A DNA stretch of 64,000 bases from Mobula hypostoma (lineage: Eukaryota). Below, one piece after another: positions 4,190 through 57,789 of the stretch (positions within the stretch are counted from its first letter, which is position 1; every line of letters starts with the position of its first letter). The position numbers and the translations under genes were made by a program. Location of the stretch: assembly GCF_963921235.1 (NCBI RefSeq), contig NC_086097.1:167588001-167652000 (forward strand), written 5' to 3'. The notes under the pieces were generated by a model. It made no database searches. It was not told the origin of the DNA and saw nothing but the letters and a program-made list of their open reading frames with translations.

Positions 4190-5113
4190 CTGTGGAAAAT
4201 TAGATCAGGTGGGACCCAGGGAGAACTGACTAATTGGACGCACAGTTGGTTTGAAGGTAGGGAGCAGAGTGTGATGGAGGGAGGTTGCTTTTCAGTCCAG
4301 AGGCCTGTGACTAGTGGTATGCCTCAGGTGTCAGTGCTAGGCCCATCGATATTTGTCATCTGTATCAATGATTTGGATGAGAATATACAGGCATGAATAG
4401 TAAGTGTGCAGATAAGACCATGCTGAGGGAGTATCATAGAGTCAGAGACTAAAGCAGCAAGAAACAGTTCCTTCGGCCCACACAGAAAAGTTACCCACCC
4501 AATCCAGTCCCATTTGCCTATGTTTGGCCCTTTTTCGATCCATGTACCTATCCAACTGCCTTTGAAATAGTGTTATTGTAACCGCCTACTTGCTCTGGCA
4601 GCCTGTTCAACATACACACCACCCTCAGCATAAATAAGTTCCCTCTGAGGTCACCTTTAAGTCATAAACAAAGCCCTTGCCATCCTGGAATTCAAAATAG
4701 ATTCATAACATAATCTGGAAAGATTTACAAGGATGGTGTCAGAACCCGAGGCACTGGGTTACAGGGAGAGGTTGGATAGGTCAAAACTCTATTTCTTGGA
4801 GCATAATAGATTGATAAGTGATCTTAGAGAGATGCATAAAGTCATGAGGGGCAGGGATAGGGTGATAGTGCACAGTCTTTTCTTCCAGGGTTGAAGAATC
4901 AAGAGCTAGTGCATATATATAAGTCAAAGTTAAGAGGGAAAAGATTTAATAGGAAGTTGAGAGGCAAATTTTCAGGCACAAACAGTATTACGTATATGGA
5001 ATAAGCTGCCATAGGAAGCAAGTGAGGCAGATACCTTAACAGAATTTAAAAGGAACTTGTACAGGTACATGGATCGGAAAGGTTCAGAAGGTCATGGGCC
5101 AAATGCCAGGTAC
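4190..5113 (+). mobile_element. Degenerate CR1 fragments (with an opposite-strand piece at about 4440-4660), interrupted at 5113
   Basis: Decayed GxPQVSVLGP RT motif near 4317-4345 and a CR1 3' region that resumes at about 7217 after the Rex1 insert. Confidence 0.65.
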
Positions 5114-7215
5114 CATCTCCGCCCTTAAGCACATGAACAAGTGTGTAGATAGAGTGACATCACAAAAACAAATAAAAGCTTTCCCCAATCAGAAACCATG
5201 GATGAACAGAGAACAACAGGAATTCTGCAGATGCTGGAAATTCAAGCAACATACATCAAAGTTGCTGGTGAACGCAGCAGGCCAAGCAGCATCTATAGGA
5301 AGAGGCGCAGTCGACGTTTCAGGCCGAGACCCTTCGTCAGGACCCATGAACAGAGAACAGAGAAGTTCGCCTCCTGCTCAAAGCCAGAGATTCAGCTTTC
5401 AGGTCTGGAGACCAGGAGGCTTACAGCTCAGCCAGGGCCAACCTGAGGAGGGGAATCTCTCAGGTTAAACACATATACAAACAGAGAATCGAGGAGCATT
5501 TCAACTCCTTGGACCCCCGGCACATGTGGCATGGCATACAGGTCATTACAGACTTCAAACCACCTAGTACTGTGCCCCTTTCCAGCTCTGCTTCCCTCCC
5601 TGATGAGCTCAATTACTTGTACGCTCGCTTTGACCGAGAGATCAAGGAGGTCACCCTCAAAGCGGATCTCCCACCTGGTGAACTGCCTCTCTCACTTTCC
5701 ACCTCCGATGTTTGTGCCACCCTGAGCAGGGTGAATGTACGGAAGGCAGCTGGTCCGGATGGAATACCTGGCCGTGTGCTCAGAGTCTGTGCAGGACAGT
5801 TGGCCAGGGTCTTCACGGACATTTTTAATCTGTCCCTGGCCCAGGCAGTTGTCCCCACAAGCTTCAAGATCGTCACCATCGTGCCAGTGCCGAAGCATTC
5901 CACTGCCACAGGCCTGAATGACTTCTGTCCAGTTGCACTCACCCCCATCATTGCAAAGTGCTTTAAGAGACTGTTCTATCACATCTGAAATCCTGTCTGC
6001 CCACTACCCTGGACCCCAGTCAATTTGCCTATTGCACCAACAGGTCAACAGAGGATGCTATCTCCACAGCACTTCACTCTGCCCTGACCCACTTGGGCAG
6101 CCCTTACGGCAGAATGCTGTTCATTGAATGTTCGGCATTCAATACTGTGATCCCCTCCAAGCTGATCGCCAAACTTTGCCAGCTTGGTATCAGTTCATCC
6201 CTCTGCAATTGGACCTTGAACTTTCTGACTAACAGACACCTATCAGTTAAGTTAGACAACCTCTCCTCCTCCACTCTCACCCTGAACACTGGCGTGCCTC
6301 AAAGCTGTGTGCTGAGCCCTCTTCTGTACTCCCTTTTCACCTATGACTGCATTCCTGTACATAGTTCTAACTTCATAATCAAGTTCGCAGATGACACCAC
6401 AGGGTTGGCCTGATCAGAGGGGATGACGAGACAGCCTACAGGGACAAGGTCCAGCACCTGGCTGTGTAATGTGCCGACATCAACCTGGCCCTTAACACCC
6501 AGAAGATCAAAGAGATCATTGTGGACTTCAGGCATGCTAGGAGCCACACTCACATCCCAATCTACATCAACGGAGCTGTAGTGGAGCGTGTATCAAACTT
6601 CAAATTCCTTGGTGTCCACATTTCCGAGGATCTCACCTGGTCCCTGAACTCCTCCATCCTGATCAAAAAGACGCAATAGTGCCTTTATTTCCTGCGGAGC
6701 ATCAAGAAAGCTCACCTCTGTCCCAGGATACTGATGGACTTTTACCGTTGTACCATTGAGAGCAGACTCACCAACTGCATCTCAGTGTGGTATGGCAATT
6801 GTCCCATATCGGACCGCACCCAATTGCCCACCATTGAGAACATCTACCATAAACGCTGCCTGGGCAGGGCGAAAAGCTTTATCAAAGATGCATCTCACCC
6901 TAACCATGGACTTTTTACTCTCCTCCCATCCGGTAGGTGCTACAGGAGCCTCCGCTTCCGCACCAGCAGGCACAGGAAGAGCTTCTTCCCTGAGGCTGTG
7001 ACCCTGCTGAACCTCACATCACAGCGCTAAGCAGTATTGCACCCATATTGTACTGTCTCAGTACTTTCATATTTGTATACTGTAGCACTTACTTTTTATT
7101 CGCGGTTATTTTGTAAATAACATTATTCTTTGCATTTCTGATCAGATGCTAACTGCATTTCGTTGGCTTTGTATCTGTACTCAGCACAATGACAATAAAG
7201 TTGAATCTAATCTAA
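5114..7215 (+). mobile_element. 5'-truncated Rex1/Babar-type LINE with disrupted RT
   Basis: ORF pieces: [63 protein letters not shown]. Frameshifts and stops are present. Ends AATAAAGTTGAATCTAATCTAA. Confidence 0.9.
5308..5343 (-). ncRNA. Minimal type I hammerhead ribozyme motif inside a ~130-bp PLE-derived insert (about 5216-5343)
   Basis: Minus strand reads GUC CUGACGA AGGGUCUCGGCCU GAAAC GUC GAC: conserved CUGANGA/GAAA core, stem II, palindromic ACGU stem III, GUC cleavage triplet and GUC/GAC stem I. Confidence 0.75.
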
Positions 7216-8114
7216 TGAGACTAACTTGGATGGGCATCCTGCTGAGCACGGACCAACTGGGCTGAAGGGTTTGTTTCCATGCTGTATGACACTATGACCC
7301 CACCAGTGCCCAGTTTGGTCTTCACCAGGAGCACTTGCCTCCTGGCCTCATCACAGCCTTGGTTCAAACATGGGGTGAGATGACTGCCAAGATATGCTTG
7401 CTGGTGGGAGCTTGTTGTGCCTGAATTAGCCTCAGAATTTCTTACATCAGTGACCACACTTCAAAATACTTCAGTGGCTGTAAAGTACTTTGGACGGTGA
7501 TAGCTAAATGCACCTTGTTTCAACTTCAGGTGAGATGAGTTTCCAGCCTGATGCTTTTTCAAACAATGTTCATGCCATTGATTAGCTATAGGTTTAGAAA
7601 TTCCATTATAGATACTGAATGAAGAACCCAAAACCTACTTAGACTGTCACTTGCTATTTGCTTTCACTTATAAAATCTGTGAAACAACAAATGCCAACCA
7701 TGTAGAAATACATCTTAATTTACTTTACTAAAAGAATCCGTCACATAGGCTTTAGAATTGGTAGTTAGGCTCCTGACTAGTTCCACTAGATTCTGCTATG
7801 TGCTGGGCAGCATGGAATAGATAGTGATACATATATTTTAATGAATTTTTGATTATGAACATGTTTGCTTTATTTTCACCACCAAATTTACTGAAATTTG
7901 CACTTTATTAAAACTAAAAGTTGGTGCGGCTCTTCACCGAAGTTTATTCTTAACCAGAAAAACAATTGCCAAATACTCATAACTGGAACAAAAAAATTTA
8001 AACACAAGATCCATTCAAGTCCTGAACATAAAGTGGATCCTATGGAAAACTAATCCAAATGGCACTGAAGTCCAAATCAGCAATCAGTATTTTAAAATGA
8101 GCAATTACAATGTG

Positions 8115-8211
8115 TGCAACACACACAAAATGCTAGAGGAACTCAGCAGACCGGACAGTATCTATGGAAAAGAGTACAGTTGACGTTTCGGGCTGAGACC
8201 CTTCAGCAGGA
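8115..8211 (-). mobile_element. PLE 3' terminal fragment with a mutated hammerhead core (CUGCUGA)
   Basis: Same family as 11625-11720; minus strand reads CCTGCTGAAGGGTCTCAGCCCGAAACGTCAAC. Confidence 0.7.
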
Positions 8212-8714
8212 TAAGGTGATAGTGCACAGTCTTTTTTCCAGGGTTGAAGAATCAAGAGCTAGAGCATATATATAAGTTGAAGTTAAGAGGGAAAAGATTT
8301 AGTAGGAAGTTGAGAGGCAAATTTTCAGGCACAAACGGTATTACATATGTGGAATAAGCTGCCACAGGAAGCAAGTGAGGCAGATACATTAACAAAATTT
8401 ATAAGGAACTTGTACAGGTACATGGATAGGAAAGGTTCAGAAGGTCATGGGCCAAATGCCAGGTAGTGGGACTAACTTGGATGGACATTATAATGTGAAC
8501 AAGTTTTCTCTGGTAAATCTACATCTCTCTGGTACAGACACTATATTTAAATTCATTCATATTCAATTACTTGCAGTATTTGACTTATTTTATTTGGTGA
8601 TTCATGTAATCTGTCTGTAATAAATGCAGTTGGCAGCAGAGGGCACTTTATATCACAATCAAGAGCACTGGAGAAGTAAAACCAGGTGTAAATCTTCAGG
8701 ACAGATATACAAGT

Positions 8715-11395: not shown

Positions 11396-11624
11396 TAACA
11401 TCTTCACCTTACTTGCCAGCGAGCAGGCAGGATGTAGGCAGAGCCACTAACACATTAAGTATCATTGGGGTAGAGTCAAGATATCATCTTCCTTCCAGCA
11501 ACAAGACTGAGAGTTAGTGAACCCTATCTTTCTCTTTCCTTCTGTAAGATCTGAACCACATGAAACTGCAGAGAGTTGTGGACACTGCTCAGCACATCAT
11601 GGAAAACAATCTCCCTTCCATGGA

Positions 11625-12244
11625 ACACACATCAAAGTTGCTGGTGAACGCAGCAGGCCAGGCAGCATCTCTAGGAAGAGGTACAGTCGACTTTTCAGGC
11701 CGAGACCCTTCGTCAGGACTAACTGAAGGAAGAGCTAGTAAGAGATTTGAAAGTGAGAGGGGGAGGGGGAGATCCAAAATGATAGGAGAAGACAGGAGGG
11801 GGAGGGATGGAGCCAAGAGCTGGACAGGCGATTGGCAAAAGGGATATGTGAGGATCATGGGACAGGAAGCCCAGGGAGAAGGAAAAGGGAGGGGACCCAA
11901 AGGATGAGCAAGGGGTATAGTCAGAGGGACAGAGGGAGAAAAAGGAGAGAGAGAAAAAGAATGTGTGTATATAAACAAATAACAGATGGGGTTGAGGGGG
12001 AGGTGGGGCATTAGCGGAAGTTTGAGAAGTCAATGTTCATGCCATCAGGTTGGAGGCTACCCAGATGGAATATAAGGTGTTGTTCCTCCAACCTGAGTGT
12101 GGCTTCATCTTTACAGTAGAGGAGGCCGTGGATAGACATATCAGAGTGGGAATGGGACGTGGAATTAAAATGTGTGGCCAGTGGGAGATTCTGCTTTCTC
12201 TGGCGGACAGAGCGTAGGTGTTCAGCAAAACAATCTCCCAGTCT
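11625..12244 (-). mobile_element. Penelope-like element 3' part (GIY-YIG C-terminus, 3' region, hammerhead variant at 11685-11720)
   Basis: Reverse complement of about 13398-14030. The hammerhead reads AGUC CUGACGA...GAAAA GUC GACU, with stem III mutated. Confidence 0.85.
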
Positions 12245-13201
12245 TCAGCAAGGCATTTGTTAAGGTACCTCATGCAAGGCTTATTCAGAAAGTAAGGAGG
12301 CACGTGATCCAAGGGGACATTGCATTGTGGATCCAGAACTGGCTTGCCCACAGAAGGCAAAGAGTGGTCGCAGATGGGTCATATTCTGCATGGAGGTCGA
12401 TCACCAGTGGTGTGCCTTAGGGATCTGTTCTGGGACCCCTACTCTTCACGATTTTTATAAATGACCTGGATGAGAAAGTGGAGGGATGCATTAGTAAATT
12501 TGCTGATGACGCAAATGTTGGGGGTGTTGTGGATAGTGTGAAGAGCTGTCAGAGTTTACAGCGGGACATTGATAGGATGCAAAACTGGGCTGAGAAGTGG
12601 CAGATGGAGTTCAACCCAGATAAGTGTGAGGTGATTCATTTTGGTAGGTCATATATGATGGCAGGATATAGCACTAATGCCAAGACTCTTGGCAGTGTGG
12701 AGGATCAGAGGAATCTTGGGGTTTGAGTCCATAGGATACTCAAAGCTGCTACACAAGCTGACTGTGTCGTTAAGAAGGTTTACGGTACATTGGCCTTCAT
12801 CAACCGTGAGATTAAGTTTAAGAGCCGAGAGGTAACGTTGCAGCTATATAGGACCATGGTCGAACCCCACTTGGAGTACTGTGCTCAATTCTGGTCACCT
12901 CACTCCAGGAAGGACATGGAAACCATGGAAAGGGTACAGAGGAGATTTACAAGGATGTTGCCCAGATTGGGGAGCATGTCTTATGAGAATAGGTTGAGTG
13001 AACTCGGCCTTTTCTCTTTGGAGCGATGGAGGTTGAAAGGTGCCCTGATAGAGGTGTATAAGATGATGAGAGGCATTGATCGTGTGGATAGTCAGAGACT
13101 TTTACCCAGGGCTGAGATGGCTAGCATGAAAGGGCACAGTTTTAAAGTGCTTGGAGGTAGGTACAGAGGAGATGTCAGGGGTAAAATTTTTACGCAGAGA
13201 G
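12245..13201 (+). mobile_element. Internal CR1 RT fragment, truncated at both ends
   Basis: FSKAFVKVPH, WIQNWLAHRRQRVV, ISKFADD, PHLEYCAQFWSP; in-frame stops are present. Confidence 0.9.
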
Positions 13202-13202
13202 A

Positions 13203-14060
13203 AGGCCACATCCTATCTCCCTCCTGGCACTTATCCTTGTAAGCGGAACAAGTGCTACACTTCCTCCCTCACTACCATTCAGCACCCCAGACAGTCCTTT
13301 CAGGTGAGGCGACACTTCAACCTGTGAGTCGGCTAGGATGATATACTGCGTCCGGTGCTCCCAATGTGGCCTTCTATATATTGGTGAGATCTGACGCAGA
13401 CTGGGAGATCATTTTACTGAACACCTACGCTCTGTCCGCCAGAGAAAGCAGGATCTCCTAGTGGCCACACATTTTAATTCCATGTCCCATTGCCATTCTG
13501 ATATGTCTATCCACGGCCTTCTCTACTGTCAAGATGAAGCCACACTCAGGTTGGAGGAACAACACCTTATATTCCATCAGGGTAGCCTCCAACCTGATGG
13601 CATGAACATTGACTTCTCAAACTTCCGCTAATGCCCCACCTCCCCCTCGTACCCCATCCATTATTTGTTTATATACACACACTCTTTTTCTCCCTCTCCT
13701 TTTTCTCCCTCTGACCCTCTCACTATACCCCTTGCCCAGCCTCTGGTTTCCCCCGCTCCCCCTTTTCTTTCTCCCTGGGCCTCCTGTCCCATGATCCTCT
13801 CATATCCCCTTTGCCAATCACCTGTCCAGCTCTTGGCTCCATCCCTCCCCCTCCTGTCTTCTCCTATCATTTTGGATCTCCCCCTCCCCCTCCCACTTTC
13901 AAATTTCTTACTAGCTCTTCCTTCAGTTAGTCCTGATGAAGGGTCTCAGCCCGAAACATCGCCTGTACTTCTTCCTAGAGATGCTGCCTGGCCTGCTGTG
14001 TTCACCAGCAACTTTTGTGTGTGTTGCTTGAAATTCCAGCATCTGCAGATTTCCTCGTGT
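13203..14060 (+). mobile_element. Penelope-like element 3' part with GIY-YIG endonuclease remnant
   Basis: Translation IYCVRCSQCGLLYIGE...EHLRSVRQ...HFNS...RLEEQHLIF...GMNIDFSNFR ends at TAA 13629-13631 and is followed by a pyrimidine-rich 3' region and a hammerhead motif. Confidence 0.88.
13929..13965 (+). ncRNA. Hammerhead ribozyme motif (diverged copy) in the PLE sense strand
   Basis: AGUC CUGAUGA A GGGU CUCA GCCC GAAAC AUC GCCU: the core is intact, stems I and III carry mismatches. Confidence 0.6.
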
Positions 14061-14901
14061 TCCCCTCCATGGACACTGTCTGCACCTCTCACGACCAATA
14101 TAATCAAAAGCTCACCCATCCTGGACTCCAGAACTTTTCTCTCCCCTCCCATTGGACAGAAGATACTAGAATTTGAAAGCACATGCCACCAGCCTCAAAG
14201 CCAGTTTCTACTCCATTATTGTAGGAGTACTGAATGACCTCTTGTACAAAAAGGTGGACTTTACAATCTACCTCATCATGGCCTTGCACCTTATTGTCCT
14301 CCTGCACTGCATGTTCTCTGTAACTATAACCTTATACCCTATGATAACAGCAACAAGAACAATTCTTTAAAGATAGTCTAATGTGAAACAGCATTAATGC
14401 TGGAATCACAAAATAAAATGACCAGGGCCAAACACACGTTCCAATATCTAGGTACCTAATGTGGATCTGGTGTTTTGACTTGTCCTTCAGTTTTCAGATT
14501 GAAATGCTTGGACTGACAAAGGCATGGTGAAGGAAAGGAGACTTGGGTCAAAACAGCCTCCCAAGGGAGATCTTTTTTTCTTTTTCATTCCATTGTCACT
14601 TTCTGCAATAAAATGACATGGTAGCTTGTAAGATACTTTGTGTATTTAATGATGCAGAATCATTTGGTAACATTTATTTGGTTGTACAACTTAAGCCTGA
14701 GAACTCAGGGTCAATTGTTTCACAAAACTTTTAAATTGGTGAAATCAGTATTTCCAGTGATTACAGTACATTTATTTGCCACTTTCTACCATAAAACATA
14801 TTGTAAACTTCTTCATCACTTTTCTTCTTCAGGATTATGACAGGATTCACTTTCTAAGACCCACTTGCAATCTGAACAATTTGTAATTCACAAATGTACA
14901 G

Positions 14902-15240: not shown

Positions 15241-15321
15241 TCGTTTTTTACACAATTTGATTTTCAGACATCATCAAATTGTTAAAGATGACTCTTGATG
15301 TTGGATTTCAAGCAACACACA

Positions 15322-15463
15322 TAAAAATTGCTGGTGAACTCAGCAGGCCAGGCAGCATCTATAAGAAGAGGTACAGTCGACGTTTCAGGTCTCGACCGGA
15401 AACGTCGACTGTACCTCTTCCTATAGGTGCTGCCTGGCCTGCTGCGTTCACCAGCAATTTTTA
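15322..15463. repeat. Inverted repeat (65-bp arms, 12-nt loop) made of two PLE termini
   Basis: 15322-15386 is the reverse complement of 15399-15463 with about 3 mismatches. Confidence 0.9.
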
Positions 15464-15538
15464 AGTGTTCAATGAGAGCTGGTTAGGTGAGATACTTTGT
15501 TGTGAAGCTCATAACACAACTTTCACCCAAATACTATA

Positions 15539-24734: not shown

Positions 24735-25096
24735 TGATGCTGTCCAAGTTGCATGCTATCTTGGACAACGTCTCCCATCCACTACATAATGTACTGGTTG
24801 GGCACAGGAGTACATTCAGCCAGTGACTCATTCCACCGAGATGCAACACTGAGCGTCATAGGAAATCATTCTTGCCTGTGGCCATCAAACTTTACAACTC
24901 CTCCCTTGGAGGGTCAGACACCCTGAGCCAATAGGCTGGTCCTGGACCTATTTCCTGGCATAATTTACATATTATTATTTAACTAATTATGGTTTTTATA
25001 TTGCTATATATCTATACTCTGTTCTTGGTTGGTGCAACTGTAACGAAACCCAATTTCCCTCGGGATCAATAAAGTATGACTATGACTATGACTATG
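24735..25096 (+). mobile_element. Short 3' copy of the Rex1-type family at 1-842
   Basis: Near-identical to about 495-842, including the (TATGAC)n tail. Confidence 0.88.
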
Positions 25097-27869: not shown

Positions 27870-28400
27870 GATACTTAAAAAGGACGTCTCCGGCTGCATT
27901 CGTGAGCTTGCAAACGTGAGGATGAGGCGCTGATGGAAGGGGTTGCGGCAGGGAGGGGGTATACCTGCTTCCTGAGACATGGGGATGTGTTACAGCTTGC
28001 GACCGCGGCTCTTCAGCGATCCCTCCAGCGGCGGCCCCGACACGGAGCTGCGCCCTGGAGCGGGGGCCGAGCAGCCACACCAGGGGGACACGGCAACCAG
28101 GCTACGGAGCGCCGACGGCCCCGGGCTGCAGCTCCGCCGCAGGGAGACGGACTGGCAGCCGCAGCAGAACGGCGCAGAGGGAGAGCGGGCGCCTCCGCCT
28201 CTGCAACTGGGCAGCAAAGGGCCGGACAGGGACAAGCACAAGGGCGACAAGCCCCGGCCGCAGGACGCAGAAGCAGACAGAGAGGCCAAGAAGGTCAGCA
28301 AATGCATCGACAAGATGTTAAAGCAACAGAAACGCGAGTACAAGCAGACCCACCGCCTGCTGCTCTTGGGTAAGGTCTCTGTAGCCACCTGCGTGGAAGG
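27870..28400 (+). promoter_or_regulatory. CpG island over the putative GNAL XL promoter and first exon
   Basis: Abrupt GC- and CpG-rich tract in an otherwise CpG-depleted window, coinciding with a first coding exon. Confidence 0.75.
27979..28369 (+). CDS. GNAL: First coding exon of an extra-large Gs-family G-alpha subunit (XL-Golf, long GNAL isoform); partial CDS
   Basis: Begins MGMCYSLRPRLF, like the long GNAL N-terminus MGLCYSLRP as recalled, and ends EAKKVSKCIDKMLKQQKREYKQTHRLLLLG (G-alpha N-helix and beta-1). Strong Kozak GACATGG, in-frame upstream TGA at 27931, and a phase-1 donor G|GTAAGG at 28369/28370, the conserved Gs/Golf exon-1 boundary. Confidence 0.9.
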
Positions 28401-28574
28401 AAAGATGTGGGTTGGTTGGAACCCCATTTCTTCACAAAACCATACTCTCCTAAACATCAGTTCTAACATTTTGTGTAAAAGCACTTTCAAGCCTTTTATT
28501 TTGCTAAACCGACCGATTTCTAACCACTGTCTAGAATTTGGGTTTCCTTCCGTAAGGATCTGCTAACCGTTTTG

Positions 28575-32000: not shown

Positions 32001-35000
32001 TAATTAGTCAGCACTTTTGGTGAGGCCCAAAAGTGGGCTTAAAGAAGGCTGGCCTACTTATCTGGAGTTATCCTTTGAAATCCCACCACAGAGGAAGGGG
32101 AATATAAATTGTAATAACGAAGGCTGGTCTCAAGAAGATGGACTACAGGATTGTTTTTATTTTTTCAAAATCCATTTTTGAATTCCTCAGAGAAAGAAAT
32201 GCAGCATTCTAGGCCAGTTTGGCCTATGTATGACTCCAGATCCATGGTACTGTAGTTGTCTACTGAAATGAACCAACACGTCACTTTTACGAGCCTCTTT
32301 GATAAGCAAATGAATATACAGCCAATCAAAGCTCAAAGTAAACTTATATATGTGTCACCATATACTGCCCTGAGATTCATTTTCTTGCAGACGTTCACAG
32401 TTGACCAAAGAAATCCAGGAGAATCAAGGAAAAACTACATGCAAACTAAGACTGACAAACAACCACTGTACAAAAGTAGACAACCTGTGCAAAAGCAAAG
32501 ACATAAGACATAATAATAAATTAATGCAGAGAACATGAGTTGTAGAGTCCTTGAAAGTCCATAGGCTGTGGAATCAGTTCATGAATTGAGTTGAGTAAAT
32601 GGAGGGATATGGACCACCTGAAGAGGCAAAGGAGGTTGGGTGAGTAATTATTTTGGTAAAACATCATTGACAGACGAGCTTATTCTGTGCTGTATTAGTT
32701 GCTCAGTTCAGAGGTAGTCATATTAGTAAATTGGTTTATCATTGCCACGTTTATTTTGCCTGCCATCCATACAGATTATTTCGTCACCTCAGTACATTGA
32801 GGTAATACACAGGAAAAGCAATAACAGAACGTGGAATATGAGAAAATGCAGTGCCGGCAGACGATAAGTTGCAAGGCTATAGTGCGATGGGCTTTTGATC
32901 TCAGAATCTATCTTAATGTGCAAGAGGGCCAGTTAATAGTCTTGTAATAGCAGAATAAAAGCTGTCCTTGAGCCTGGCTATACGTGCTTTCAGGCTTCTG
33001 TACCTTCTGCCTGTTGGGAGGGGTGAGAAGAGCGAACATCCGGGTGGGTGGGATCTTTGATTATGCTGGCTGCTTTACCAAGGCAGCGGGAAGTGTAGAC
33101 AGAGTCCCTGGAAGGGAGGTACGATCTCATGATGTGCTGAGCTGTGTCCATAAACCCTCTGCAGTCTCAGCTAGAGCAGTTGCCATACCAAACCATGATG
33201 TTGCTACGATTTTAAGAATTGTTAAGTGCCCACCGGGTCATACTAAATTTCTTTTGCCTCCTAGAAAAACTTGAGACACTAGTGTACTTTCTAGGCCGTG
33301 GTGCCCACATGGTTTGTCCAGGACAGGCCATTGGTGATGTTCAAATAGATAGGGATGGGTACTAACTGTCGGGCCATGCCAGTGATGCCACTAAATGTGC
33401 ATGTATGAAGAAAATTAGTTTCCCTTCTTTTATCTAACATGTTGGTAATTTCATCCAAAAAAGTAGACTGTAGACAAACTCTACCTCTCCTTCACCAATC
33501 CTCTCTGACTGTCCTTCATAAGTAGACATTTGCCTTAATGTTCATTTACTCTCTGACAGACTTTAGTAATTTGCTCAGAACTGGCCTTGAATGTGAAGGT
33601 TTCTATGATGTTATTGTGTTGCTTATGGTACTGATTGCCACTAGGTTCTGAGAGACAGTGTGGGAGAGTGACCTGGCTTGTTAGTTATCTGAGGAATGAT
33701 TTAATAAAGACATATTTAGCTTCTGAACAATTTGTGTAATATGCACATTTAAAATAGAGCAAATAAACCCAGAATAACTCTTGCAGACCACCGGAGGTAC
33801 AGTCAGGAGAGCAGGTTAAAGGTATGTTCAAACATAATCTGAGAAATGGAAGCAAGAGCAACATGCACAAAGTGCTGGAGCAGGTCAGACAGCATTGATG
33901 GAGGGGAGAGAATGCTGGATGCTTTGGACCAAGAGCCTTCCTCAAGAATGGGGGGGGGTAAAAAGGGCAGAAGCCAGGATAAGAGGTTGGGAGAAGCACA
34001 AGCTGGTGAGTGAACCTGTATCCAGGTGAGGGCTAGAAGTAGGAACGTGATATCTGTACCTGCCTGTGCTTTCCCTTCCTTCTTATCAATCCCTGACACC
34101 TGTCCCACTGTTCATTATGGTTGATCCTGATCCTCCTCCTGTCTCCAAAACCTTGCCAAATCCAGCCTTGAATATACTCGATGCTGGTCCATCCCCATTC
34201 CTCTCTTGGTTGGTTACAGCCTTCTGAACAAACATTATATTCCTCAATTCAGTCCTAGACGGCCAACCCCTTAGCCTGAGTTGTGCCCCTTTGTTTTAGG
34301 CTGTCCTGCATGATAAGAATACTTTCCCCACCTACCCTGTCAGTCCTTCGCTGAGTCAATGCGTCAGGATGTGACAGAGGGTGCTCTGTTTGAATGAGAG
34401 GAGGTATGCTTTGGAGTTCAGAAGAATGAGGGGCTATTGTATCAAAACGTATAACATCCCGATGGTACATGACAAGGTAGATGTTGAAATAATATCACAT
34501 ACGGAAAATCGTAAACGGGGGCACATTTAAAACTGAGGTACATGGAAATTCCTTCTCACAGAAAGGAGTGGATTTTTAGAATTTGCTGCTCCAGAGACTT
34601 ATGCTGGCTAGCTCACGAGAAGTATTTAAAGTGAAGATGGATAAATCTTTGAAAGGGGTTTGTGGCCTATGGGGTTGCAGCACAGGGAATGAGTTGAAGC
34701 CTGGAGACGATCAGCCATGAGCCGATCGAATGGCAGCACAGCGTTGAGGAACCTTGTGATCTACTCCTGCTTTTAGTTCCTTGTATGCAGCGTGGTTAAG
34801 AATTTTTGAGTAAAACTTGTAGTACCAAAGTTGAATTGATGGATGGAAGGCCATTTGGCACAGGGACTGCTTTCAGACACTGATTCCTCTCTCCTTTCTA
34901 TTGTGTGGGACTAGTTTAACACACCTTTACTGGCCACTAATTGAAGCTCGAGGCCTATTATACCCTTTCAACAACTTGTTGTAATAATTTGTGTGATAAA

Positions 35001-46999: not shown

Positions 47000-48575
47000 A
47001 TTGGAGTCAGAATCAGGTTTAATATCACTGGTATATAGTATGTTGTTTTGAGCAGCAGTACAATGCAATACATAATAAAATGCTATAAATTACAATAAGA
47101 AATATATGTTTAAATAAAATTAGATAAGTAGAGCGAGAAAGTAAAAGAAAAGTGATGCAGTGTAATGAGTTACTTGTCCATCCAGAAATCTGATGGCAGC
47201 GGGAAAGAAGCTATTCCTGAAATATTGTGTGTGTCTTCAGCCTCCTGTACCTCTTCCCTGATGGTAGTAATGAGAAGAGCGCATGCCCTGGCTGATGGGG
47301 GCCCTTAATATTGTGTGTGTCTTCAGCCTCCTGTACCTCTTCCCTGATGGTAGCAATGAGAAGAGCGCATGCCCTGGCTGATGGGGGCCTTTAATATTGT
47401 GTGTGTCTTCAGCCTCCTGTACCTTTTCCCTGATGGTAGCAATGAGAAGAGCGCATGCCCTGGCTGATGGGGGCCCTTAATATTGGATGCTGCCTTTTTG
47501 AGACATTACTTTTTGAAGGTGTCCTTGGTGCTGGAGCCCATAATAGACCTGGCTGAGATTGTAAATTTTTGCAGCTTTTTCCAGCCCTGTGCAGTGGCCC
47601 CTCCATGCCAGACGATGATGTAATCAGAAGGATTGCTCTCCGTGGTACATTTGTAGACATTTGTGAGAGTCTTTGGTGATATACCAAGTTACCTCAAACT
47701 CCCAATGAAATGTAGCCACCTTTGTAATTGCATCAGTATGTTGGGCCCAGCATAGAGTTTCAGAGATGCTGAAACCCAGAAACTTTAAACTGTTCACCCT
47801 TTCTACTGCTGATCCCTCAATAAGGACTGTATGTTCCCTCGACTTTCCCCTCCTAAAGTCCACAATCAATTGCTTGGTCTTACTTTGTTGAGTACAAGGT
47901 TGTTGTTTTGACACCACTCAACCAGCTGTTCTATCTCAATCACTACGCCTCCTCCTCTCCATCTGAAATTCTGCCAACAATAGTTATATCATTGGCAAAT
48001 TTATAGATTGTGTATGAGCTATGCCTAACCACACAGTCGTGGGTGTAGAGAGAATAGAACAGTGGGCTAAGCACACACCCTTGAGTTGCGGCAGTGTTGA
48101 TTGTCAGCGAGGTGGAGATGTTATTTCTGATCCATACTGTTTGTGGTCTTTCGATGAGGAAGTCAAGGAGCCAGTTGCAGAGGGAAGTAGAGAAGACCAG
48201 GCTTTGGATCTTATTGGTTAACACTGAGGATATGATCGTGTTTGAATGCTGAGCTGCAACCATTAAACAGCAGCCTGATAAAGGTATTACTATTGTCCAA
48301 GAGATCCAAGTGGAAAGCCAGTGAGGTTGTATCTACTATAGACCTAGTGTGTCGATAGGAAAATTGCATCAGGTCCAGGTCCTTGCTTAGGCAGGAGTTG
48401 ATTCTGCCCATAACTAATCTCTCAAAGCACTTCATCACAGTAGATGTGAGTGCCACTGGGTGATGGCCTTTGAGGCAGCTAGCCCTGCTCTTCTTGGGCA
48501 CTGCTATAATTGTCACTCTTTTGAAGTAGGTGGGAGCCCCCAACTGCAGCATTGCGAGATTAAAGAATTTATAAA
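47000..48575 (-). mobile_element. Rex1/Babar-type LINE with degenerate RT
   Basis: Minus ORFs PVALTSTVMKCFERLV, QGCVLSPLFYSLYTHDC, KFANDITIVG, KTKQLIVDFRR. Confidence 0.88.
47221..47485. repeat. Tandem triplication of an 86-bp unit
   Basis: Units start at 47221, 47307 and 47393; AATATTG recurs at each junction and at 47479. Confidence 0.95.
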
Positions 48576-50380: not shown

Positions 50381-51050
50381 ATGTAGCCAGCCATTTCTAC
50401 TCTTTTTTTAAAAAAAAAATAATTATTATAACATAGTACCCATTCGACTGACTTTTTCCCCTTGCGTGAAAAAGAACCTTGTCACACTGCTTTTTAACTG
50501 GACCAATGTTTTCTTTTTTTAAAAAAAACTCGAATGCCTCACTGTACTTCAACAGGTAGGTAGACATCTTGAGTTTGTTTAAAACTTCTTTGTTGCCATT
50601 GTTATGTTTTCCTCATTTGCTCATCACCTCCCTCTAGTTTCCCCCTCCTTCCCTTTCTTCCATGGTTCACTGTCCTCTCCTATTACGTTCCTCCTTCTGC
50701 AGCCCATTACCTCTTCTACTTGTCCTCTCCCAACTGCTTACTTCATCCTTCCTCCCCCCACCTATATTCTCACATTTGATTGCTCGGGGTATAATTAGCT
50801 GATGTATACTGAGCGAATTGAACAGTATTTTGAAGCAAATGAAATAGCCAATGATAAGCAAGTGCCAGTTTTGCTGAATGCACAGGGGTTAAAAGGCATA
50901 CTGTTTGCTTAGGAATTTAACTGCTCCAACCAAGCCTGCTGAAATGAGCTTTGCTGATACTGTGAAAGTAACGCAGAAATATTTAGAAACAAAACCATTG
51001 TTGATTGCAAAACACTTTAGGTTTCTGAAGCAAAATTAAAAGGAAATGGA

Positions 51051-51313
51051 AGCAACATACATCAAAGTTGCTGGTGAACGCAGCAGGCCAGGCAGCATCT
51101 CTAGGAAGAGGTGCAGTCGACGTTTCAGGCCGAGACCCTTCGTCAGGACTAACTGAAGGAAGAGTGAATAGGAGATTTGAGTAAGAGAGGTCTCGGCCTG
51201 AAACGTCGACTGCACCTCTTCCTAGAGATGCTGCCTGGCCTGCTGCGTTCACCAGCAACTTTGATGTGTGTTGCTTGAATTTCCAGCATCTGCAGAATTC
51301 CTGTTGTTTGCGT
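51051..51313. mobile_element. Palindromic PLE-terminus insertion
   Basis: 88-bp inverted arms 51050-51137 / 51189-51276 (1 mismatch) and a 15-bp TSD TTAAAAGGAAATGGA (51036-51050 / 51314-51328). Confidence 0.9.
51115..51150 (-). ncRNA. Minimal type I hammerhead ribozyme motif (intact)
   Basis: AGUC CUGACGA AGGGUCUCGGCCU GAAAC GUC GACU; 4-bp stem I AGUC/GACU. Confidence 0.8.
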
Positions 51314-51995
51314 TTAAAAGGAAATGGAGCCTGTTTTAGCATGTGTGGCTGAACTGAAGTTGTCTCAGCATTGTCAGTTCAGTAAAGGGGATAATAACGC
51401 ACTGAGATGTTGTTTAGTTTGTGGAATCTTAGAAGAAAACATTCAAGAAGTGGCTCCTAACTGCAGCAAAAAGAGCAGATGAAATAGCTATGTCAATGGA
51501 AACAGCAGACAGAGACACCATTGAGTTGTAGTCAGGAATGAAGGTGAGCGTGAACAAAATTGCAAAGTCTAAACAGAAACCGGCCTGGCCAAACAAATTG
51601 TATTACCATTGTGGCAGGGGCTCCTATACACCAGACCCAAGCAGGTTTAAAGATGGAACTTGCAGAAAATGGCACGAAGTGGGACAAAAGCATGTCAGGC
51701 AGACCAAAATAAATGGACTATGCAGGAAAGAGAAAAAGATAAAATACCAAAAAGCCAAGTTGCACTAATCTGCATGCTGTTGATGAAAAGTCTGATAATG
51801 ATAAGAATGACACAGGACTGAGTAGCCTTAAGATTTACAGTGTGAAAACTGACAATAGACAAGCAATATGGCTCACACCAGAAGTGAGCAGTAAATTAAT
51901 TAAAATGGAATTGGCTGTTTCAGTCATTCCACAAGATGAGTATGAACAGCATTTCAAAGATACTGAACTGAAGCCTGCAGATATCCAACTAAGGA

Positions 51996-54236: not shown

Positions 54237-55130
54237 AAACACAAAGTCTGCAGGTGCTGCAAAACCAAAGCAACACACACAAAATGCTGGAAGAATTCAG
54301 TAGGTCAGGCAGTATCTATGGAAATGAATAAACAGTCAACGTTTCAGGCCACGACCCTTCTTCAGGTTTGAAATGAAAGGGGAAAGGTGACAGAATAAAA
54401 AGGTGGGGAAAGGGAAGGAGGACTAGCTAGAGGGTGATGGATGAAACCAGGTGGGTTCAGAAGATAAAGGGGTGGAGAAAAAGGAATCTGAGAGGAGAGT
54501 GGACCATAAGAGAAAGGGAAGGAGGAGGGGACCCAGGAGTGATTAGCCAGTGAGAAGAGGTAAAAGGTCAGAGTGGGAAATAGATGAGGGGAGGGGTGGG
54601 GGAGGGAAAAGTAAAATTTTATCGGAAGGAGAAATCAATATTCATGCAATTAGGTTGGAGACTACCGAGATAGAATATAAGGTGTTGCTCCTCCACCCTG
54701 AGCGTGGCCTCATCTTGGCAGAGAGGACCGACGTCAGAATGGGAATCAGAATTAAAAAGTTTGGTCACCGGGAAGTTCCGCTTTTGGTAGATAGAGCGGA
54801 GGTGCTTGAGAAATCGGTCCCCCAATTTACAATAGGTCTCACCAGTGTAATGGAGGCCACAGCGGGAGCGCCGGATACAACAGACGACCCAAGCAGATTC
54901 TCAGGTGAAGTGTTGCCTCACCTGGAAGGACTGCTTGGGGCTCTGAATGGAGGTGAGGGAGGAGGTGAACTGGTTGGTGTAACACTTGGGCCTCTTGCAG
55001 GAGCATTAGTGGGAGGGGTGAATGGATATGGGAACTGCAGAGGGAGAAATCCCTACAGAAAGCAGTGGGGGCAAGGGGAGGAGGTAACGATATGTTTAGT
55101 GGTGGGATCCCTTTGGAGATGGCAGAAGTC
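54237..55130 (-). mobile_element. Penelope-like element 3' part (second subfamily) with a hammerhead variant at 54334-54366
   Basis: Minus ORF GDRFLKHLRSI...DEATLRVEEQHLIFYLGSLQPNCMNIDFS; hammerhead CUGAAGA AGGGUCGUGGCCU GAAAC GUU GACU. Confidence 0.85.
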
Positions 55131-57789
55131 TAGAGCTGTCAGAACCACTCCCTGCATTCTCAAAGTCAACTCCTGCAACCATCACAATGGGAGCTTCAGA
55201 ACCTGAGACTGTTTTCACAGCAGAAAGTCTCACCTGCCAAGCAGAGTGACCTGCCCTGTCAGGCAAGATGTTGTCCCACAAGAGGTTTGATTATGCATTC
55301 TTGTTTGCTTAAATAATTCATCTTGAGTTGCATGATTTAAAAAAAAAAGTCAATTGCATACATCATGATGCTACCACAGGATAGATGTGTCCCTCGCTAA
55401 ACGTAAAAACGAATGTACACAAATTATCTCCCGGCTTCCTTATTTCCCTTGTAATTAGTTTTCATGTTTTGGAGTTACAAATCATAACAAGGAGAAGAAA
55501 AGGGACGAGAGGGTAACCAGAGTTAGGAATGGAAAAAAGAGAGAAGGGGTGAGGGGAAAGAAGTTACCAGATTGGAAAAGTCAATGTTCTTGCCAACAGG
55601 CTCATGACCAAATGGATGAAGTAACACTTCCTTTTAACTTTAATGCTTTAAGATGATCCCTCTGTGTTTTCTCTCCCTGAGCATGAAAACACTGGGCCAC
55701 ATCCATAACATCCACCCCCACCTAGTCATCTCAACAGGATCAAAGCCAGCCTTGTGTTCTGCATGCCTTGCATTTGCCTGTCACACAGCTCTCCGTTCAG
55801 CTCTTGAGTTTTGGGAATGTAAATTGCCACACAGACTACAGTGAGGACATGCACACAGTCTAATCACCCATTTCTACTCCGTTTTGGAAAGCACAAGTCA
55901 AAAATCACACAGGACGGGGCAGTTGAATCAATAATATTTCCACCATAAATGACTGCTTTAACTTGCCATTGAATATGGTAGATTGTGGCCTACCCTGTCT
56001 GGATTTGACTGCAGCAATAAAGGGAGCTGGTGATGCGTCAGTGCTGAATTGAGAATAGGGCATCAGACACCAAGGCTTGAGATGGAAAGAAACAGATGAA
56101 TTTTTAATGGCCCGATTATATTTTGCAGCTCCATTTCTGCTTGAGGTGAGGCTTTGATCAATCAGGAAAGCTCCTTGCCCACTTTCCTTCTCTTCTAATG
56201 GCACTGCTGCTGCCCAAACTATTTTGTGGTAAGATTTTGAAGTGACACCTCAGTCATTTCTGGTGAGTCTCTCCTCTCTGTTCCACCAACAATGGAACCC
56301 CAGGCTGCCAGCTTTTTTTAAAATCATAATTCAGGCTCTCAGTTCCCCCTCTCTTTAGCTATGCGTGCTATTTTTAATTATGTTCAAAGTAAATTTGTTA
56401 TCAAACTACATGTGTATGTGTCACCATATACAGCCCGGAGATTCACTTTCTTGCAGGCATACTCAATAAATCCAATAACCATAATAGAATCGATGAAAGA
56501 CCACAACAACAGAGTGGCTAACCAGTTTGCAAAAGGCAACAAACTTTGCAAATACAAAACAAAAAGAATAAGTCAATAAGCAATAAATATCGAGAACATG
56601 AGATGAAAAGTCCTTGAAAGTGAGTCTATAGGTCCCCCTTCCTCTGCCACACCTTCCCTTTTCTTCCCCCCCCCCACACCTGCCCTACATACTCCTATCA
56701 CAGTGTGCCTCCCTACTCTCCAGGGTAGGGTGTGGTTTGTTTCCTTCCTCCACTAGAGTAGACCTATTCTATCTTTCCCTAACTAAGCCCTGTATTCACT
56801 GAGGTGTTCCATTCCTTTCCAAGAAGCCAGACTACCTCCTGACCTCAATAGCACTCAAACAGCACACTTAATCTTGACTGCTGTGTGCTCCACCACAAGG
56901 GATGAACTATTTAATAAGAAAACTTGTGCTGCCTTAATGAACTCCTGGTGTCAGCAGGTCTACACCGTAGCCTCCATTGCTGTGGCACAGCCAAGTTGAC
57001 TGAGGAATTAATTTAAATGCCACCTAGTGTGGCTGTCAGTAGAGCAGGTTTTTCTCTGCCCGTAGCTGCACAACCATTCCCTCAAAATGGCTGCACACAT
57101 CCCAATGCCAATCGTAACCCACGCAAGATCTTCCCTAACTGTGCATTTTGCTTTGTGAAATTACACGACTGAGCTGAAAGTTTGAATTTGCTTTTGGCTC
57201 CATGGAATTGAGCACAGTACAGCATAGGAGTAGGTCTTTCAGCCCACCCAACACCAAGTTAAATTCCATCTCTTCTGCCAGTACATGATCCAAATCCATC
57301 CATTCCCTGCACATTATTTTCTCTATCTAACAGCCACCCAAGCACCACAATTGTAACTGCTTCCACCAGTAAATAAGACTGTGGCAACTGTAGAAGGGTC
57401 TCCATGTTGTCTACCAATATCACCCTATGGCAACAGCCCATTTCAGGCATCCACCACTCTCTGTGTAAGGAGAAAACAACTTGGCCTACACATCCCTCAA
57501 ACTTTCTCTCTCCCATCTTAAATGCATATCCTCCAGTACTTGACATTCCTACTGTGGGAGAAAGGTTCTTTTTCAGCTGTAATTTCTGTAAATAACTTTG
57601 AAAGTACCAAAGCCATTGGCTGGGATTTGTCTTCTTGAGGTGTGTTATTATAAAATCATGAGGTGCGTTGCAAATTTGTGGATCGTGCCAATTTGCTTTA
57701 AGAAGTGCCTGTGTACAAATCTGCTCTTACTAGTAAGTGCACAATGGTGCTGGTGATGTAATGATTAATGGGTCACACATTTAAGCTCA

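Follow-up and report, generated by a model that had tools for sequence, protein, structure and literature searches.

A Penelope-like fold-back insertion in Mobula hypostoma with a LINE reverse transcriptase fragment near its seam

The 64,000-nucleotide stretch of Mobula hypostoma analyzed here (the window) is repeat-rich animal DNA, and at 11612-14073 it contains a unit in which an inverted pair of Penelope-like element (PLE) pieces and a LINE reverse transcriptase (RT) fragment are enclosed by a single 13-bp duplication. The RT fragment, or cargo, is putatively of the CR1 type. The locus raises the question of how foreign sequence came to lie within an insertion with one target-site duplication (TSD), and whether it was caught during or after integration. 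The composite structure at 11612-14073 is real, and its parts are as follows.

11545-11611, plus strand: host non-LTR element, left part (3' end of the ORF), by alignment to four of the six window paralogues tried.
11612-11624, plus strand: left TSD copy, last base also compatible with the PLE, by paralogue alignment and junction statistics.
11625-12244, minus strand: left PLE arm, with a tail-less 3' end, a 3' UTR with a hammerhead-like motif (one core base changed) and the C-terminal part of the endonuclease.
12245-13201, plus strand: LINE RT fragment of 957 bases, both ends missing, without tail or TSD, replacing 22 bases of the left arm.
13200-13212, minus strand: what remains of the inner end of the left arm, corresponding to 13375-13363, by a 12-base exact match; its first two bases are common with the CR1 end.
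13213-13214, no strand: true head-to-head seam of the arms, two bases of uncertain origin, after which plus-strand PLE homology starts.
13215-14024, plus strand: right PLE arm, with the cysteine linker, the GIY-YIG endonuclease and a 3' UTR with a hammerhead-like motif.
14025-14060, plus strand: PLE tail of 36 bases, on the right arm only; family copies extend about 5 bases more.
14061-14073, plus strand: right TSD copy, first base also compatible with the tail, by paralogue alignment and junction statistics.
14074-14340, plus strand: right part of the host element, aligned in register with its left part, with a deletion of about 14 bases near 14091.

The outer frame was found much as the initial annotation had described it. 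The arms, which had been called inverted copies over about 620 bp, aligned over 620 bases (11625-12244, minus strand, against 13398-14024) with 40 substitutions (28 transitions; 12 of CpG type) and seven gap columns. The claimed duplication was also recovered, as its copies (11612-11624 and 14061-14073) are identical at 12 of 13 positions and both fall on the same 13 paralogue bases. Aligned separately, the two copies met these 13 bases in two of the six window paralogues tried (2752-2740 and 33117-33105), the remaining four alignments not spanning the TSD site, and an equally good TSD match was given by 12 of 200,000 random junction pairs. The host element, presumably of the Rex1/Babar type, runs continuously across the unit, as had been proposed, with its right part in register with the left part in the paralogue alignments. 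Its flanks were linked to a long copy at ~5113-7212, which carries RVT_1 and PF09004, via a paralogue (32800-33700) that matches the long copy at the protein level (E 2e-18); direct tblastx of the flanks gave no match. Without its cargo, the element amounts to a fold-back of 1,501 bases whose spacer measures 150 bases, and the CR1 patch lengthens this spacer to 1,153 bases. An inverted truncated copy, a one-sided tail of 30-40 bases and one TSD constitute the standard layout of a PLE insertion (PMC3846280, PMC8557442). The outer frame at 11612-14073, with its one-sided 36-base tail, is a textbook PLE fold-back, and the frame and the TSD were made in a single PLE event. The unit as a whole is dead sequence with no function.

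Relatives were compared through contigs from four of the 23 listed runs, and the comparison covered 15 of 2,021 joints, 40 of the 193 rows of variants and 32 of ~519,000 contig pieces. Among the joints listed, short PLE fold-back joints were present in all four runs. Two smaller fold-backs were noticed in the window. One, at 51036-51328, is free of cargo and has a tail-less left arm, a tailed right arm, arms that are 97% alike, a short filler at the seam and a perfect 15-base TSD. The other, at 15297-15468, has almost no spacer, and no TSD was seen by eye.

The PLE, of which the locus contains no RT, is probably an EN+ PLE of the Neptune/Nematis type. The right-arm piece is 87% identical to P0001, and among named sequences those nearest to the endonuclease belong to Mobula hypostoma (87%) and Hypanus sabinus (81-83%). 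The C-terminus of P0001 matched GIY-YIG with an E of 4.6e-4 and 20.9 bits, below the cut-off of 22.6, and the truncated PLE pieces of the locus alone gave no Pfam match. A CX2-5CxxC motif within the linker that joins RT to EN is a feature of EN+ PLEs (PMC8557442). This motif is complete in P0001, P0002 and P0006; the linker at the locus retains the first two cysteines, the third having gone with a 12-base deletion at 13260, and has one extra base at 13319. A hammerhead core pattern matched the right arm and two other window copies but not the left arm, and Rfam gave no hammerhead match, only two weak and irrelevant ones; the motif is covered in PMC4209133. Elsewhere in the window, an older and diverged PLE copy covering the endonuclease lies at 54547-55206 on the minus strand (73% to the right arm), and a short tailed PLE end with a duplication of about 14 bases lies at 5211-5345 within the presumed Rex1-type element.

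Whether the arms had one template or two was addressed with the sites at which the letter of each arm is present in other family copies. There were four such sites, namely 11633/14016, 11697/13952 (a CpG), 11840/13809 and 12112/13530; at the last, Lys is found in the left arm and P0001, and Gln in the right arm, P0002, P0003 and P0006. Judged from these letters, the two arms are likely to have been copied from two RNA templates. This step is weakened by the CpG among the four sites and by a rare letter at 11976/13667 that both arms share (~0.3% of the family depth; chance 0.04-0.14). The arms differ by 6.5% (CI 4.7-8.7), while the flanks of the window differ from those of organism B at 16 of 988 bases (1.6%) and from those of organism F at 40 of 588 (6.8%). 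The arm divergence lies between the two flank values, and both arms can therefore postdate the split from organism F. Furthermore, both arms carry a letter at 11728/13921 that accounts for ~54-61% of the family depth in organisms A and B and at most 3% in F and J. The initial annotation had named arms too diverged to be contemporaneous as evidence against its single-event reading; with a divergence within the B-F bracket and the shared letter at 11728/13921, the arms are not of this kind. Gene conversion between the arms was considered for 11996-12110 (one change in 115 bases) and is not claimed, as the length of the longest identical stretch is within expectation (p 0.15).

The cargo (12244/5-13201) is one reading frame of 319 codons with two stops, at 12418 and 12724, matches RVT_1 and, as previously noted, has neither tail nor TSD of its own. 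It is 66-69% identical to the APE-endonuclease and RT proteins P0012, P0015 and P0016, and its ORF ends short of the C-terminus of the homologues. In all four runs compared, the family of the cargo continues past 13201 (as loose ends), which indicates that the 3' end of the RT piece is missing. The features of canonical CR1 retrotransposition, an intact 3' end with a tail and an own TSD, are thus absent. On the other hand, the cargo shows the features of class-2 templated insertions, with no TSD or poly(A), a loss of 22 bases, and microhomology of 1-2 bases at 12243-12244 and 2 bases at 13200-13201. The loss and the microhomology are the signature of a repair-type templated patch and would also fit a later, second step. 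No donor was found within the 64-kb window, where the best match was 86% over 140 bases, and exact-pattern scans of the viral, metagenome and prokaryote collections yielded 0 loci each. A protein clock gave no separation between the cargo and the arms (19 of 159 against 19 of 207 conserved columns, p 0.39), the CR1 homologues being distant. The depth of the CR1 piece is similar in all four runs and the bins of the PLE 3' UTR drop sharply in organisms F and J; contig depth being no copy number, this does no more than hint at a greater age of the CR1 family. We also observed that P0010 and P0015, which are 67-73% identical to the LINE RT piece, come from records labelled Klebsiella and Carnobacterium; they are probably fish DNA contaminating bacterial assemblies.

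The position of the cargo is decided at the seam. The initial annotation had the right arm run from 13203 to 14060. The end at 14060 was confirmed, whereas protein homology puts the start at ~13213-13215, within the codon for Asp in the T-D-L motif (P0001, P0002 and P0006). The bases before it, 13200-13211, are the exact reverse complement of 13364-13375, that is, of the continuation of the left arm, which stops at the equivalent of 13398, only 22 bases short of this 12-base remnant. Among 121,246 control 15-mers, four hit the 50-base zone with 12 letters and nine hit anywhere in the 183-base continuation; the thirteenth base of the remnant follows from an Arg codon in P0001 and P0002 and from the copy at 54619-54967. 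As 13200-13211 continues the left arm after a 22-base gap, the CR1 piece lies within the left arm, at a distance of about 11 bases from the seam proper at 13213-13214. The earlier reading, two PLE ends capturing about 1 kb in one event, therefore holds for the single-event frame and TSD and fails for the placement of the cargo, which interrupts the left arm instead of lying between two PLE ends; a cargo between intact terminal repeats, the rotifer-type feature, is absent. A local snap-back was tried as the source of the remnant in CR1, in the two flanks and in the arm's sense strand. The best matches there were 5-7 bases, against 10 on the antisense strand, and a snap-back from those sources was rejected.

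Altogether, we lean towards a single Penelope-like integration, in which the CR1 patch was probably copied in while two cDNA ends were being joined. Capture at integration is favored because the interruption falls within 35 bases of the seam, a zone covering 4.7% of the cargo-free element. According to PMC11167929, the PLE tail marks two reverse-transcription start sites, and the purified PLE enzyme, a predicted dimer, cuts and extends both strands; the integration steps after priming are stated there to be unvalidated. The event began with a cut inside the old LINE with the 13-base stagger that the TSD records. Following PMC11167929, both 3' ends would then have primed reverse transcription on PLE RNA, the right one at the tail start site and the left one at the tail-less site, with the cDNAs growing toward each other, and, with moderate confidence, on two RNAs from different sub-lineages of the family. 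The left cDNA reached at least the equivalent of 13363, and 957 CR1 bases now replace 22 of its bases 11 bases from the seam. During end-joining, one end may have paired with the tip of the other cDNA and copied about a dozen bases. A microhomology of 1-2 bases may then have let it switch to a CR1 template, either RNA or a genomic copy already present, from which it copied 957 bases before rejoining the left cDNA 22 bases further on. L1 offers precedents, namely additional RT pieces where an inverted insertion has its internal junction, and insertions from two RNAs (PMC11702581).

The locus at 8104-8497, which the initial annotation cited as a similar case, differs in having one PLE end, not two. 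There, microhomology links a tail-less PLE end of an older subfamily to a stretch of about 280 bases whose source is a decayed LINE 3' piece, all within an 11-base TSD; the copied part matches 4851-5112 and 7213-7237, about 1 kb upstream, at 95% (13 substitutions in 260). A PLE end and a copy of nearby DNA within one TSD indicate that in this genome PLE insertions can contain templated copies. At a later time, the 2.1-kb element that we take to be Rex1-type split the donor, so that the events can be ordered.

The alternative that survives best, although we regard it as unlikely, has two steps, a cargo-free 1.5-kb PLE fold-back and a later double-strand break in its left arm that was repaired with the CR1 patch, by a class-2 templated insertion or an endonuclease-independent LINE insertion. 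It would produce the same final sequence, from which the timing of the patch is not readable. The left arm is continuous on both sides of the patch, and every class-2 feature listed in PMC5110952 is present (no TSD, no tail, a small deletion, microhomology). As to position, a random break would come this close to the seam about once in 20. Palindrome junctions were rearranged in mice (PMC8701086), which would favor a later break, but the same paper has spacer inclusion as uncommon at transgene palindromes, and spaced inverted repeats are not preferred targets of breakage or repair in PMC3300023. Work cited by the latter found no fork stalling at inverted repeats with a 52-bp spacer; with the 150-base spacer here, later fragility explains the position of the patch poorly.

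Compared with capture at integration, it is quite improbable that the composite was built at another locus and arrived here whole, copied from transcripts of that locus by PLE enzymes working in trans, as in the rotifer model. PLE ends do mobilize unrelated sequence within one TSD in Adineta vaga (PMC3846280), and arms of different sub-lineages would suit a locus assembled over time. However, the two tail-out arms would not both be primable from one RNA strand, and such a transfer would probably require two opposite transcripts. Neither inner junction was seen a second time, a weak result in data that cover no whole genome.

It is very improbable that CR1 retrotransposed into the PLE pair in the ordinary way and then lost its 3' end, tail and TSD to a deletion. 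The window is dense in LINE insertions, yet such a deletion would have had to remove the whole 3' end of CR1 and at most 22 bases of PLE, and there is no TSD remnant at 12244.

A contig of organism B crosses 14060/14061 by 24 letters, below the 31-letter standard, and no contig bridging 11624, 12244 or 13201 was seen among the 32 of ~519,000 pieces listed. A contig of organism F at single-copy depth (275 letters, depth 9.7) has two letters in common with the orthologue in organism B and matches 14061-14291 from letter 43 onward only. Its fit begins at the first base of the right TSD copy and leaves 42 letters unplaced, as a putative empty site would. The flanks of organism A show no differences over 816 bases; this may be the assembly's own sample and was not counted as support. 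No relative with or without the CR1 piece at the locus was seen among the 15 of 2,021 joints and the 32 of ~519,000 pieces listed. An assembly artefact joining repeat copies is hardly credible, even though inverted PLE structures trouble assemblies (PMC8557442) and the inner junctions are unbridged in the contigs listed, as the arms differ at 40 sites and the TSD copies at one, the remnant resumes in register 22 bases on and the organism B contig crosses the right junction.

Some further features of the window lie apart from the insertion. A GC-rich open frame at 27976-28500 ends like the first exon of a long isoform of a G-protein alpha chain (Gs/olf class); it matched a Gs-alpha chain weakly (E 0.003) and gave no Pfam match, and we presume it to be GNAL. 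Two young 5'-truncated copies at 495-841 and 24736-25089, ~95% alike over 219 bases, represent the 3' end of another LINE with a short tandem tail. At 47216-47490, an 86-base unit from a LINE 3' region is present in three tandem copies that are 95-98% alike.

Taken alone, the unit is one dead insertion with a dead LINE piece, and as an instance of foreign DNA trapped in the course of integration or afterwards it is not very unusual. The seam, with a 13-base remnant of the left cDNA tip beyond the foreign patch, records how the two ends were joined. We tentatively raise the idea, which may well not hold, that in cartilaginous fishes PLEs routinely integrate by priming at both ends of the target on two separate RNAs, and that the gap between the cDNAs is filled by copying other DNA, whether from close by (8104-8497) or from far off (11612-14073). 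If seam patching were routine, the PLE family, which is very abundant, would act in the germline as a constant means of duplicating arbitrary genomic sequence, and the route would differ from the read-through framed by pLTRs that has been proposed for rotifers. In a series of such loci, PLE end-joining and PLE-driven duplication in vertebrates could become countable genome-wide.

The fold-back frame has been described before, and so has capture between PLE ends (PMC3846280). Our literature search, which covered few subscription papers and no supplements, found no report of cargo nested in a PLE arm or of PLE capture in sharks or rays. The locus resembles the inverted-pLTR insertions of EN+ PLEs such as Pen2a_Av (PMC8557442, PMC11167929) in its inverted 5'-truncated copy, one-sided tail of 30-40 bases and one TSD. 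It departs from them in the 957-base foreign RT fragment in the inverted arm near the seam and in arms that look like two sub-lineages. It shares with the captures in Adineta vaga an unrelated sequence and PLE ends within one TSD; those described in PMC3846280 are an NRPS gene and non-coding sequences between solo pLTRs, and the gene, lying between direct pLTRs, was read as mobilization in trans. Here, in contrast, a dead LINE piece forms the cargo and is nested in one arm, where 22 bases were lost, and the arms contain coding sequence for the endonuclease. The patch is also like the class-2 templated insertions in PMC5110952, which lack a TSD and a tail, show a microdeletion and microhomology and have LINE fragments among their templates; the experimental ones measured 73-414 bp, against 957 bases here, at the retroelement's own integration seam. 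Finally, the non-canonical L1 insertions described in PMC11702581 include twin priming with extra RT pieces, two-RNA insertions and locally templated DNA, and they share with this locus inverted outer pieces, a foreign piece at the inner junction and joints with microhomology. Those are human cases in cultured cells, in which one break was primed twice on poly(A) RNA, whereas the locus in M. hypostoma represents a germline PLE event in a cartilaginous fish.
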